Below are positions 27,201 to 29,029 of a DNA stretch of 32,000 nucleotides, one piece after another. Below the pieces are notes generated by a model that searched no databases, was not told the DNA's origin, and saw only the letters and a program-made list of their open reading frames with translations. Made by a program: the position numbers and the translations under genes. The stretch comes from Candidatus Scalindua sp. Lineage in GTDB: Bacteria; Planctomycetota; Brocadiia; Brocadiales; Scalinduaceae. How positions within the stretch are numbered: the first letter of the stretch is position 1; each line of letters begins with the position of its first letter. Where the stretch lies: contig JALDRA010000001.1 in assembly GCA_031316235.1 (NCBI GenBank), positions 2,040,001 through 2,072,000 of the forward strand. Direction: 5' to 3'.

Positions 27201-27417
27201 CAGTCTTACCACCCATACTATCAGCATTGATTTCATCCTGGACCTCTGATAAGTAGTTGTGGGTAATTTCTATTTGTTCAACAAGGATTTTTGCCTGTTT
27301 TTTTATTTCATCTTTTAATACGTGGTCTTGCCTTTTAATGATCCACGTAAAGCTGGTTCCCAGTACCAGTGTTATAAAAAGGCTGATTGACAAGATACAT
27401 TTAATTCTCAGTTTCAT
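24235..27417 (-). CDS. Multi-domain sensor histidine kinase: periplasmic heme-c (Tll0287/DUF3365-like, CXXCH) sensor, TM, HAMP, PAS, PAS(Cys-rich), GAF, PAS, HisKA, HATPase_c
   Basis: 1060-aa ORF with ATG, 7 nt after the Amt2 stop. The periplasmic part reads ..TVRHSNADNTPNDFETTVLKKM..YIAPLYLEESCLKCHGEPSGG..YKAGDLWGVISVTAPL, with CLKCH at 26935-26949. HAMP is ITKPISKISRVMTAIANGDLDKRIHISSGDEIGMLVNSINKMTEDL. The H-box is VASVAHEINNPLEGI. The G-box is TKKGTGTGLGLWICYNIIAEHSGRISV. Confidence 0.92.
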   Translation of the reverse strand: MKLRIKCILSISLFITLVLGTSFTWIIKRQDHVLKDEIKKQAKILVEQIEITHNYLSEVQDEINADSMGGKTDFKHLHSSKTGMEFYNRISRNTPYTVRLITVRHSNADNTPNDFETTVLKKMEEQKPQYAFYDETPGTEDEQLFRYIAPLYLEESCLKCHGEPSGGTIIPERKMGIYKAGDLWGVISVTAPLQPIHARLKANAIILISVALVSIGIIAFITHLLIKRLITKPISKISRVMTAIANGDLDKRIHISSGDEIGMLVNSINKMTEDLQKTTVSKGYVDNIIESMIDTLVVIDQNGNIKTVNKSMLDLLGYEESDLIGNDINMILSDKDNPIANRGWSDIWKEDVLKDYDIIYRTQKSEDIPMNFYGRIMRNSDGEVDNIVGVARDMRQKKKLISELSDFKEATLYMLGDLEKARVELEREEKKLDMIVTGIGAYLCLIDREMKITWGNKPFEKQFGMVNGFKEDTCNTTFGCGNVPPEDCTTKRVFKSGKIEETKRLGTGRDNETKYYHFISSPIKDDQGTITHVLELVQDITKMWQMEHQKEIIYNINKIITSGLMSDMFKSISNELKRIIEFDRISISILDEKTQKFEVMAVDKSYDCTAINEGDWFPTEGSLLERVTFTGSPFIVRNTSKSTFWSDHMLLKEGVKSRLGFPLEYKGIIIGTINLGSLKENNFSEYHFTILEQIAMQLAIAIENARLFAKTRDSEKRYKDLYDNAPDIYITNDENGIINNCNKTGAEILGYNTDELIGRHIFEFQTEKNRNVMEKLLPKRLSGQLIKGLELQLVKKDESVIDVSLNDNHMYDDSGKIIAIQSAYRDITAKKSLESQLLEAEKLASTGRVVASVAHEINNPLEGIINYLQLLLERMEDKDEKRRYVELVMEGIYRIAGIVRRLLDSNMNILEEEGDHKIDHHVQNVVTLLQRKLSQHKITVKQFFDKNIPKVRCHPNRLEQVFTNLMLNSADSMPHGGIINITIQVKVDELQIEFTDNGCGIPEKDLTNIFEPFFSTKKGTGTGLGLWICYNIIAEHSGRISVRSRLNAGSTFQILLPLKK

Positions 27418-27424
27418 AAATTAT

Positions 27425-29029
27425 TTATGATTTAAAGTTTTCAAGTTCTTCTTCCATTTTTTTCATCTTTAATTCTCTTCCGATAGCAACTTTTTGAAAG
27501 TTCTCCAATTGTTCTACTTTTTTCTTAAACTCATCTCGTGACTCTTCTAATTCTGAAGTTCGTTTCCTTACATCTTCTTCGAGATTTTTCTTTGTGTGCT
27601 CCAGTTCTTTTGTTCTTTCTTTTATTTTATCTTGTAATGCTGCATTCATGTCCTGAACTTTTGTGATTTTAACAAAGTCAAGCCAGGAAGTCACATCAGT
27701 ATATTCACTGATATTTAATCCCTTTGTTTCTTCTTCTGTGCTGACTCTGATACCCACCAGTTTCTTAAGGCACCAAAAGAACAAAAGACCTAATGGAAAT
27801 GCCCAGGCGAATGCCACAATAATTCCCAGGCATTGCACCTCTATCTGTAAAAGTCGATTGGAATTAGTCATTGAAAATTCGGAAACAGGAGTAAAGAGCC
27901 CGACGGCTAAAGTGCCCCAGGCCCCACAAAAACCGTGGATGGGAACAGCACCCACAGGGTCGTCCACTTTTAATACCTTTTCAATAAAGTCTTTGGCCAG
28001 CATTGCAATAATGCCCGCACATAATCCAACAATACATGCATATACGGAACTTACCCTGCTGCAACCTGCGCCAATGGCAACGAGACCACCCATGATTCCT
28101 AAAAGAATCTCTGCGGCATCCAGCCCTTTATTTCTCAGTTTTCCAAAAATTGCTACAGCTACACCCGCAACCGACCCTGAAAGAGTTGTATTGATAATAA
28201 CTAATCCAATGCTTGTATCCGCTCGTAAAAAAGAACCTCCATTAAATCCAAACCAGCCAAACCACAAAAAAAAAGTGCCGATTGTCGCCAGAGGCAGATT
28301 GTGTCCATGCATCCTGTTTACCGTGCCCTCAGAATTAAACTTCCCAATTCTTGGGCCAAGTACAAAAGCGCCTGACAAAGCTACCCAGCCACTAATGGAA
28401 TGAACAACTGTAGAACCTGCAAAGTCTATAAATCCCAAATTTCCAAGCCAACCGTGTTGATTGAAATAAAACAGGTGCCCCCATGCCCAATGACCGAAGA
28501 CAGGATAAATCACGCAGACTACAAAAATAGTTGTACATATGTGGGTCAAGAGTTTTGCTCTTTCAGCAAATGCTCCAGATACAATGGTGGCCGCAGTACC
28601 CGCAAATACCAGTTGAAAAAATACAAAGGCATATCCTAAAGTGTTTGGATGAACATCAATACCGTTTAAAAGGAAATTATTACTACCCACATAACCTTTA
28701 TAGCTTAATCCGAACATGATCCCAAAACCTACGACAAAATATGTAATGGAACTTACAAGGAAATTCAATATATTCTTTATGGAAACGCTTATGGCATTTT
28801 TTGCCTGCACTGATCCGGCTTCAAATGCAGTAAACCCTACCTGCATGAAAAAGACCATACTGGCGGCAACAATAATCCAGATATAATCTATTTTCTTCTG
28901 GATCATCTGCAGAGATATTTCTGCGTATTCAGCATATACAGTATCATGCGGATAAAGAATAAATGTAAGCAAACCTATACTGAAGAAGATAAGTAAAACA
29001 AGCCCTTTATGTTTTTGTCTGTTGCTCAT
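27425..29029 (-). CDS. amt: Ammonium transporter family protein with 86-aa C-terminal coiled-coil extension (Amt2; possible sensor-transporter)
   Basis: 534-aa ORF with ATG. Amt signatures are IDFAGSTVVHSISGWVALSGAFVLGPRIGKF, GWFGFNGGS and DPVGAVPIHGFCGAWGTLAVGLF. The tail is aa 449-534 (27428-27685): WLDFVKITKVQDMNAALQDKIKERTKELEHTKKNLEEDVRKRTSELEESRDEFKKKVEQLENFQKVAIGRELKMKKMEEELENFKS. Confidence 0.92.
   Translation of the reverse strand: MSNRQKHKGLVLLIFFSIGLLTFILYPHDTVYAEYAEISLQMIQKKIDYIWIIVAASMVFFMQVGFTAFEAGSVQAKNAISVSIKNILNFLVSSITYFVVGFGIMFGLSYKGYVGSNNFLLNGIDVHPNTLGYAFVFFQLVFAGTAATIVSGAFAERAKLLTHICTTIFVVCVIYPVFGHWAWGHLFYFNQHGWLGNLGFIDFAGSTVVHSISGWVALSGAFVLGPRIGKFNSEGTVNRMHGHNLPLATIGTFFLWFGWFGFNGGSFLRADTSIGLVIINTTLSGSVAGVAVAIFGKLRNKGLDAAEILLGIMGGLVAIGAGCSRVSSVYACIVGLCAGIIAMLAKDFIEKVLKVDDPVGAVPIHGFCGAWGTLAVGLFTPVSEFSMTNSNRLLQIEVQCLGIIVAFAWAFPLGLLFFWCLKKLVGIRVSTEEETKGLNISEYTDVTSWLDFVKITKVQDMNAALQDKIKERTKELEHTKKNLEEDVRKRTSELEESRDEFKKKVEQLENFQKVAIGRELKMKKMEEELENFKS

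Follow-up and report, generated by a model that had tools for sequence, protein, structure and literature searches.

The window analysed here, a 32-kb stretch of Candidatus Scalindua DNA within which all coordinates are given, carries a gene for an Amt-like protein with a long C-terminal tail (Amt2) followed at once by a gene for a histidine kinase (HK), and beyond these, on the same strand, genes for an NtrC-type response regulator, two PII-family proteins and a second, tail-less Amt protein (Amt1) (Table 1). The subject of this analysis is the relation between Amt2, its tail and the adjacent kinase. The junction between the two genes reads TCA TAA ATAATTT ATG, with a 7-nt spacer between the Amt2 stop codon (27425-27427) and the kinase start codon (27415-27417), exactly the distance reported in a first-pass annotation of this DNA. 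The same annotation held that the kinase gene has no Shine-Dalgarno sequence of its own, and a scan of the 30 nt preceding its ATG indeed found no GGAG/AGGA-like sequence; all six same-strand neighbours (the cytochrome c'-like gene, Amt2, the response regulator, both PII genes and Amt1) have one. No terminator-like hairpin was found between the Amt2 and kinase genes.

Two ammonium receptors built on an Amt domain provide the frame of reference for Amt2: Ks-Amt5 (kuste3690) of Kuenenia stuttgartiensis, an Amt-histidine kinase fusion (Pflueger et al. 2018, PMC5764959; PDB 6EU6), and the Amt-HAMP-GGDEF protein Sd-Amt1 of Shewanella denitrificans (Pflueger et al. 2024, PMC11152129; PDB 8QJ3/8QJ4). 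Residues 50-446 of Amt2 match the Pfam family Ammonium_transp (PF00909, E=6.9e-107), and the protein scores 381 bits against TIGR00836 (cut-off 343). Its best match in the PDB is Ks-Amt5 (6EU6, 480 bits), ahead of Sd-Amt1 (317), Af-Amt1 (193) and E. coli AmtB (~133); Amt1, with 202 bits against 6EU6 and 170 against AmtB, is therefore not specially near the receptors. An NCBI protein from a Scalindua metagenome-assembled genome is 100% identical to Amt2. Among the database relatives of Amt2, eight orthologous clusters come first (77-100% identity, 534-541 aa), after which every better match is a fusion, either Amt-HisKA-HATPase (~680 aa), Amt-PAS or, further off, Amt-MCP. Identity to the Ks-Amt5-type Amt-kinase fusions amounts to 52-56%, and these comparisons support the placement of Amt2 as their closest non-fused relative.

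A gap-free alignment to Ks-Amt5 (PDB 6EU6) bears out the pore residues recognised by eye in the first pass: the Phe gate (F142/F262), the selectivity filter with its Trp (W183/S266) and the twin His (H210/H365) are all present. The N1/N2 signature of ammonium receptors, Q-x6-E-x15-N-x2-D-[FT]-x54-60-T-x2-[ST] (PMC11152129), is kept at six of seven positions (Q63, E70, N86, F90, T145 and T148), the Asp being replaced by N89. This Asp position is occupied by E, V or D in undoubted Amt-HK fusions, and the strict pattern fails for most of the fusions listed; Amt1 does not match the pattern at all. The pore of Ks-Amt5 is closed by three bulky residues, F27, Y30 and F34 (PMC5764959), and at the corresponding positions Amt2 has two bulky residues (F66 and F69) and one small one (S73).

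Beyond the Ammonium_transp match, Amt2 continues for 86 residues (aa 449-534) in which D, E, K and R make up 49% of the composition, with no Pro and a single Gly. Within this stretch one heptad register runs through aa 462-534, its a/d hydrophobic contrast being reached by only 1 of 5000 shuffles, and AlphaFold2, with 34 aligned homologues, models aa 441-533 as one helix at a predicted local distance difference test (pLDDT) score of 55-75, moderate values of the kind expected when a helix depends on a partner. The Pfam boundary, the shuffle test and the predicted helix agree with the heptad-like, charge-rich tail that had been described from the sequence, as does the remark that Amt1 has no such tail: Amt1 stops ~25 aa past its Amt domain and has no coiled coil.

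The first ~35 tail residues (SWLDFVKITKVQDMNAALQDKIKERTKELE) align column by column with the linkers of ~90 Amt-HK fusions and with those of Amt-PAS fusions, so that the fused forms, about whose existence in some genomes the first pass had asked, Amt-HK and Amt-PAS-HK, share the proximal tail helix. This part of the tail carries the signature of the S-helix, a ~40-residue heptad helix with Asn at position 'a' and ERT one heptad later (Anantharaman, Balaji and Aravind 2006, PMC1592074), at DMNAALQDKIKERTKELE (aa 460-477), where N, L at +3, I at +7 and R at +10 fit an a-d-a-d pattern. In the fusions the linker helix leads to an H-box or a PAS domain, whereas the Amt2 helix continues as a second heptad stretch with a second KRT (aa 489-491) and then as ELEESRDEFKKKVEQLENFQKVAIGRELKMKKMEEELENFKS. 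The protein ends 57 residues past the first ERT, leaving an S-helix without a downstream domain in the same polypeptide: no transducer domain lies C-terminal of the tail before the stop codon, and the kinase is a separate gene. Mean pairwise identity across seven genomes is 82-86% in the tail, 85% in the Amt core and 41% in the N-terminal signal region; conserved as strongly as the membrane core, the tail is therefore not a decaying remnant. The idea of a degenerate DHp helix is likewise unsupported, because Pfam (E<=10) and NCBIfam searches with the tail returned only sub-threshold matches to generic coiled-coil or linker families (Fzo_mitofusin, KIF21A, a NosR-type regulator and TorS), and no HisKA match appeared in Pfam at E<=10.

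The distal part of the tail belongs to a family that was delimited and named in this analysis as the GRELKM module, for which we found no public name. A profile of the last 46 Amt2 residues, searched against 1.84 billion cluster representatives, matched 228 of them at E<=1e-3, nearly all at the extreme C-terminus, 0-14 residues from the stop. The Amt2 motif (ELExSRxEFxxKVxQLExFxKVAIGRELKMKKMEEEL) follows the family consensus (ELExSRxELxxKVxELExFxxVaVGRELKMxELxKEIxxLK), lies at aa 493-531, with the protein ending 3 residues further on, and is the sole GRELKM module in a six-frame translation of the window. Hosts of at least 170 aa (n=84) contain PAS in 56 cases, the others GAF, HAMP, REC, MEDS, PocR, 7TM, CBS, Cache, CHASE4 or MASE3; among the 25 Pfam families listed for these 84 hosts there are no HisKA, HATPase, GGDEF, MCP-signal or cyclase domains, and by their domain content the hosts are sensor proteins without enzymatic output. 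The GRELKM motif has no entry in Pfam or NCBIfam, neither the tail module nor the kinase motif described below matched anything in profile searches of the PDB, and literature text searches for GRELKM, LNMLED-type strings and split-sensor terms found nothing relevant. In one metagenome locus (L020, 5023-8277), a protein of 1085 aa, which combines several solute-binding domains with a transmembrane segment, has its own terminal GRELKM module and is encoded directly 3' of another GRELKM protein, placing two module-bearing sensors in one operon.

A scan of metagenomes with the pattern [VI]GRELKM[IKV]x[LM] yielded at least 600 matches, at least 546 of them confirmed, and 80 loci were examined. The host open reading frame (ORF) ended 0-14 residues past the module in 79 of these 80 loci, and a same-strand kinase ORF began at -23 to +22 nt after the module gene in 57 of the 70 loci whose downstream sequence extends for 600 nt or more, the junctions being mostly overlaps of 1, 4 or 10 nt; HisKA was detected by Pfam in 50 of 62 distinct proteins at +1. 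When the 75 hosts with 120 aa or more ahead of the module were clustered on that upstream sequence, 55 fell into one soil-metagenome family, whose gene order is PAS-module protein, ~380-aa kinase, REC protein; the figure of 57 out of 70 is therefore higher than the count of independent cases. Outside this family there are 19 host clusters, all singletons or pairs, and most of their loci with enough flanking sequence have a same-strand kinase ORF at +1, +2 or -1. An ORF matching a kinase profile stands at +1 in L017, L019, L023, L028, L054, L056, L059, L060 and L080, with weak matches in L017, L019 and L060 and with the L019 protein being a periplasmic binding protein by Pfam; the kinase lies further 3', past a solute-binding or H-NOX gene, in L015, L067, L016, L021 and L052, and 5' of the module gene in L014, L022 and L031.

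The kinases of these loci carry a motif of their own. In the ~380-aa kinases of the soil family (L024-L092, e.g. L025 934-2076) a sensor domain is missing, and the N-terminus is made up of two to four RRALMHILxD units in tandem, at a spacing of 21 or 28 residues; the last unit ends 46 residues before the H-box. Their genes overlap the stop codon of the PAS-GRELKM protein gene, and the REC protein gene comes next. Across diverse loci, a single copy of the motif, (E/K)RTxELEDSRxAL(M/L)N(M/I)LEDVEEARxxAEEEKxKTL, stands ahead of a PAS or DHp domain in 12 of 19 operonic kinases. A relaxed pattern finds it in 10/102 control kinases (Fisher p=1.5e-6 for the comparison with 12/19) and in 1/86 Amt-HK fusions. 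With a hidden Markov model (HMM) built from the 12 independent partner-kinase motifs, aa 401-432 of the window kinase score 15.8 bits, and scores of at least 10 bits are reached by 19/19 orthologues of the window kinase, 4/102 control kinases and 0/112 Amt fusions. The motif of the window kinase (SELSDFKEATLYMLGDLEKARVELEREEKKL) is the sole copy in a six-frame translation of the window, and the equivalent inter-PAS linker of an Amt-PAS-PAS-HK fusion (P0009) does not contain it.

The window kinase, with orthologues in Scalindua, Kuenenia and Jettenia, is built in the order transmembrane segment, Tll0287-like haem-c domain (CLKCH), transmembrane segment, HAMP, PAS1, partner motif, PAS2, GAF, PAS3, HisKA (847-904) and HATPase_c (955-1059; Pfam). 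Its periplasmic domain makes it probable that the kinase also senses a redox or N-oxide signal. The Tll0287-like domain is among the least conserved parts of the kinase across genera (57%, a figure lowered by the truncated copy in L010). The sensor module and the kinase helix both start with ERT-ELE-SR and then diverge, with basic and hydrophobic residues on the sensor side (KVxxLExFxxVxVGRELKM) and acidic ones on the kinase side (ALMNMLEDVEEAR), a divergence that suggests a parallel hetero-coiled-coil formed by the pair. An hhalign comparison gave no evidence of homology between module and kinase motif (probability 6.8%); the shared ELExSR was aligned in the same register.

A tailed Amt gene followed by the kinase gene was found in 7/7 anammox genomes (three Scalindua, K. 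stuttgartiensis, Jettenia ecosi, Loosdrechtia aerotolerans and one Planctomycetota metagenome-assembled genome), with junctions of 7, 3, 3, 9, 12, -17 and 3 nt; whether a kinase gene always follows such Amt homologues, a point raised in the first pass, is thus answered positively for all seven, at -17 to +12 nt. All seven genomes, representing at least four named genera, keep the same seven-gene cluster of tailed Amt, kinase, antisense 122-aa ORF, regulator, PII-like, PII and Amt. The cluster corresponds to KSMBR1_3722 to 3716 in Kuenenia, where, in the genome sequence, a 539-aa Amt protein and the kinase are encoded by separate genes. KSMBR1_3722 (amtb_1) was labelled an Amt 'with histidine kinase domain' by Smeulders et al. 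(PMC7438415), and since the genes are separate, this label indicates that an Amt-kinase association had been noticed before, without the tail or the split. In the same study amtb_1 was weakly and constantly expressed, and amt_4, nrp3 and nrp4 rose under nitrite limitation, that is, ammonium excess (PMC7438415). Low constant expression of amtb_1 is as expected of a sensor, and nrp4, nrp3 and amt_4 are the Kuenenia orthologues of the PII-like, PII and Amt1 genes of the window.

The two PII-family genes are the least conserved of the cluster (62% identity to Kuenenia). Both of their proteins are unusual: one is so divergent that Pfam P-II matches it over just 36 residues (E=3e-4), and the other has a C-terminal extension of ~32 residues. 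The Kuenenia cluster (L003 1-7000) is flanked upstream by genes for a reverse transcriptase, a DNA methyltransferase, a ParE toxin and a helicase, surroundings unlike those in Scalindua. Horizontal transfer of the cluster was considered on account of the 75-86% identity between Scalindua and Kuenenia, and no clear case for it emerged, because the Ks-Amt5 orthologues are likewise 71% identical.

On the output side, TGGCACTTTTATTGC is the only match to the sigma-54 -24/-12 consensus with no mismatch in the 32-kb window, and it lies directly 3' of the NtrC-type activator gene; Kuenenia has a site with one mismatch at the place equivalent to 21733-21747. We presume the NtrC-type regulator to be the cognate regulator of the kinase, and the PII-like/PII/Amt1 genes to be the output operon. 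The sigma-54 site preceding the 122-aa ORF has one mismatch in the window and is an exact consensus in Kuenenia (L003 13650-13664). Copies of the 122-aa ORF in six anammox genomes share 75-86% identity with that of the window, and the ORF matches no Pfam or NCBIfam family above threshold. Transcription from this site would run antisense into the kinase/Amt2 operon and could provide feedback. The 174-aa CDECH gene sits 84 nt upstream of Amt2 and outside the conserved cluster in Kuenenia; a similar gene occurs nearby in locus L009, on the other strand, and none is present beside the Kuenenia cluster.

Table 1. Positions of the genes, protein regions and sequence elements discussed in the text, given within the window.
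Feature	Position	Strand	Basis
Amt2 gene, 534 aa, Ks-Amt5-like ammonium-receptor clade, with C-terminal helical tail	27425..29029	-	ORF, Pfam
Amt2 core, aa 50-446, with pore residues and 6/7 N1/N2 positions	27692..28882	-	Pfam, alignments
Amt2 proximal tail, aa 449-484, S-helix-type linker WLDFVKITKVQDMNAALQDKIKERTKELE with N...ERT signature	27578..27685	-	alignment of 100 homologues
Amt2 distal tail, aa 485-534, C-terminal GRELKM module KRTSELEESRDEFKKKVEQLENFQKVAIGRELKMKKMEEELENFKS	27428..27577	-	profile search
Amt2/kinase junction: TAA, spacer ATAATTT, ATG; no Shine-Dalgarno sequence	27415..27427	-	sequence
Histidine kinase gene, 1060 aa	24235..27417	-	Pfam
Kinase helix, aa 400-435, between PAS1 and PAS2, SELSDFKEATLYMLGDLEKARVELEREEKKL, proposed docking partner of the Amt2 tail	26113..26220	-	HMM
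Kinase periplasmic domain, aa 34-192, Tll0287-like, with CLKCH haem-c motif	26842..27318	-	Pfam
122-aa ORF on the opposite strand, convergent with the kinase gene	23830..24198	+	conservation
Sigma-54-type -24/-12 element TGGCATGTTTATTGC, 66 nt 5' of the 122-aa ORF	23750..23764	+	
NtrC-type response regulator gene: REC, sigma-54 AAA+ activator, HTH_8	22187..23584	-	Pfam; same position in all clusters
Perfect sigma-54 -24/-12 consensus TGGCACTTTTATTGC, ~45 nt 5' of the PII-like gene	21733..21747	-	
Presumed output operon PII-like/PII/Amt1, followed by a terminator-like hairpin	19239..21687	-	
PII-like gene	21238..21687	-	
PII gene	20765..21199	-	
Amt1 gene, no tail, no N1/N2 signature	19239..20690	-	
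174-aa lipoprotein-like gene, C-terminal CDECH haem-c motif, weak cytochrome c' match	29114..29638	-	ORF, Pfam

The best explanation of these features, and one that we consider fairly probable, is that Amt2 acts with the kinase whose gene begins 7 nt further on as a two-piece ammonium sensor. Amt2, as an Amt-like receptor of the Ks-Amt5 clade, would bind ammonium in the membrane, and the resulting movement of its C-terminus would travel along the long cytoplasmic helix, the first part of which is an S-helix of the same type as the linkers of fused Amt-kinase proteins. The last 45 residues of Amt2 would act as a conserved docking module, pairing, probably as a parallel heteromeric coiled coil, with the acidic helix SELSDFKEATLYMLGDLEKAR (aa 401-432) between PAS1 and PAS2 of the kinase, and this pairing would bias autophosphorylation. 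Because it has a periplasmic haem-c domain of its own, the kinase would integrate ammonium with a second signal, and would pass phosphate to the NtrC-type regulator, which together with sigma-54 would turn on the PII-like/PII/Amt1 operon and the small divergent ORF. We infer both the binding of ammonium by Amt2 and the sign of the regulation that its pairing with the kinase would exert. The general link between module and kinase genes strengthens this reading. It also invites a wider and more tentative proposal, in which our confidence falls a little short of even: that kinase-less sensors of many kinds (PAS, GAF, HAMP, REC, Cache, 7TM and Amt) end in a GRELKM-type helix that plugs non-covalently into an ALMNMLED-type helix, or an array of these repeats, on the input side of a separately encoded kinase, as a general and hitherto undescribed coupling code. 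Were this code true, sensors and kinases made as distinct proteins would be mixable, and a single kinase could receive more than one input.

Several points weigh against a two-piece sensor. The contact between tail and kinase, and its site, are matters that we infer from the features described above. The linkage statistics are dominated by one family, and outside it the kinase stands at +1 in about half of the clusters. The motif of the window kinase lacks the ERT cap and reaches only 15.8 bits, and with its own sensor domain the kinase could work without Amt2. A trimeric Amt protein and a dimeric kinase present a symmetry mismatch. In Amt2 itself the receptor signature is incompletely matched in the alignment, with N89 where Ks-Amt5 has D50, and the protein may still transport ammonium, because one of the three blocking residues is a Ser (S73).

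The first-pass annotation had suggested that Amt2 and the kinase are a split version of an Amt-kinase ammonium sensor. What stands of this suggestion is a non-covalent variant of the Amt-receptor design, as indicated by the clade of Amt2, the S-helix, the gene linkage and the partner motif; an origin by gene fission does not. The kinase was rejected as the missing half of a fused protein, having its own periplasmic haem-c (Tll0287-like) domain and HAMP. Fission of an Amt-PAS-PAS-HK fusion (P0009, P0061, L012) was rejected as well: the PAS region of the fusions matches the window kinase at 109 bits (32% identity), a score that even the weakest hit listed in the kinase search exceeds (113 bits), and an origin by fission is unsupported because this likeness is no better than that of many unrelated PAS kinases. 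With its haem-c domain the kinase is a complete sensor kinase in itself, so that 'co-sensor' is the better term for Amt2. The accompanying idea that the tail docks onto the HAMP/PAS region narrows in a similar way, the partner motif between PAS1 and PAS2 (aa 401-432) being the likely site and HAMP falling away. The L012 fusion (2-2643), an Amt-PAS-PAS-HisKA-HATPase protein of the same clade, is spread over three ORFs, probably through frameshifts in the contig, and is followed by a REC gene and a gene for a REC-KaiC-like ATPase.

We rank the alternatives by weight as a tail that regulates Amt2 itself, a tail directed at another partner, and a relic of a kinase. C-termini that gate or trans-regulate transport are established for plant AMT and fungal Mep2 proteins, and the Amt2 tail might likewise serve its own protein, either as a trimer coiled coil that gates or trans-regulates transport or by binding a PII-like protein, with the kinase as a neighbour in the same regulon. 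Such a role would suit a protein whose pore residues are intact and whose blocking position S73 is small, so that transport is possible, and Amt proteins are trimers whose C-termini are known regulatory elements (PMC5764959). The cluster also holds two PII-family genes; these, however, sit in another operon, beside Amt1. We regard this explanation as unlikely, given that the heptad core contains polar T, K, R and S, typical of switchable signalling helices and not of stable trimers, and that the distal module also ends many soluble, non-Amt sensors with kinase genes tightly downstream.

That last association would be incidental if the module docked on, or targeted its hosts to, some other common partner, such as a response regulator, a protease or chaperone, or a polar or membrane scaffold. 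The +1 gene does encode a solute-binding or H-NOX protein at some loci, and the L011 host is a REC-PAS protein downstream of a kinase. The enrichment of a specific helix motif in operonic kinases (12/19 vs 10/102), together with the HMM test, speaks against this, as do the kinases of the largest family, which have no sensor domain and whose N-terminus consists of the partner motif only, and we think the explanation improbable. Least probable of all is a decaying relic of a lost kinase domain, a Ks-Amt5-like fusion cut after the linker and now without function. It can draw on the fusions as the nearest relatives of Amt2, on a proximal tail that follows their linker up to the start of DHp, and on SRDEF, seen by eye at the expected place of the H-box SHELR; it is countered by tail identity across genera of 82-86% vs 85% in the core, by the absence of a HisKA match even at E<=10, and by the membership of the distal tail in an independent, widespread module family.

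A two-piece sensor of this kind would resemble several known systems in part. With Ks-Amt5, Amt2 shares a core that aligns without gaps, all pore motifs, a long loop 5, most N1/N2 ligands and the post-membrane linker EY-DV-SWLDF...QDxN...ERTxEL. Whereas the linker of Ks-Amt5 runs straight into DHp and CA, Amt2 has ~50 more coiled-coil residues and then stops; its partner kinase is a separate 1060-aa membrane protein with sensor domains of its own, and D50 and F34 of Ks-Amt5 are replaced by N89 and S73. Sd-Amt1 offers the parallel of an Amt module repurposed as a receptor, with the same N1/N2 site concept and a switch Lys (K85 in Amt2, K44 in Sd-Amt1), and there too a trimeric sensor must drive a dimeric transducer; unlike the kinase of the window, that transducer is a fused diguanylate cyclase coupled by HAMP, not by an S-helix and a terminal module. 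The Amt2 tail is like the S-helix in being a parallel coiled coil of ~40 residues with Asn at 'a' and ERT directly after a sensor, but the S-helix was described as a link between two domains of one protein, and the Amt2 helix, which no further domain follows in cis, runs out into a distinct conserved module. As in AmtB-GlnK, one of the transporter-sensor partnerships with separately encoded partners, an Amt protein would pass nitrogen status to a separately encoded cytoplasmic signalling protein; PII plugs the pore exits there, whereas Amt2 has a coiled-coil tail and an adjacent, presumably translationally coupled kinase gene. Genetic interplay is also said to exist between AmtC and the kinase DhkC of Dictyostelium, without a coiled-coil tail or an adjacent kinase gene. 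The 'split histidine kinases' (e.g. Hik36-Hik43) likewise make up one signalling unit from two polypeptides, but these are reportedly split between the DHp and CA parts, unlike Amt2 and its kinase, where the split would fall between sensor and kinase and be bridged by a specific helix pair.

To our knowledge, Amt-like ammonium receptors are known only as fusions (Ks-Amt5 and Sd-Amt1), and we know of no Amt-receptor structure in which the transducer domains are not disordered. A separate receptor and kinase joined by a short helix pair would make it easier to dissect how a trimeric Amt protein drives a dimeric kinase. In a wider sense, the module together with the kinase motif would point to hundreds of sensor-kinase partnerships in metagenomes that have so far gone unannotated, and the pair would offer natural heterodimerising helices for rewiring two-component systems. 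For the anammox bacteria, the cluster is a candidate circuit in which an excess of ammonium would be sensed and the low-affinity Amt1/PII operon switched on, and which may combine ammonium with a haem-sensed signal.

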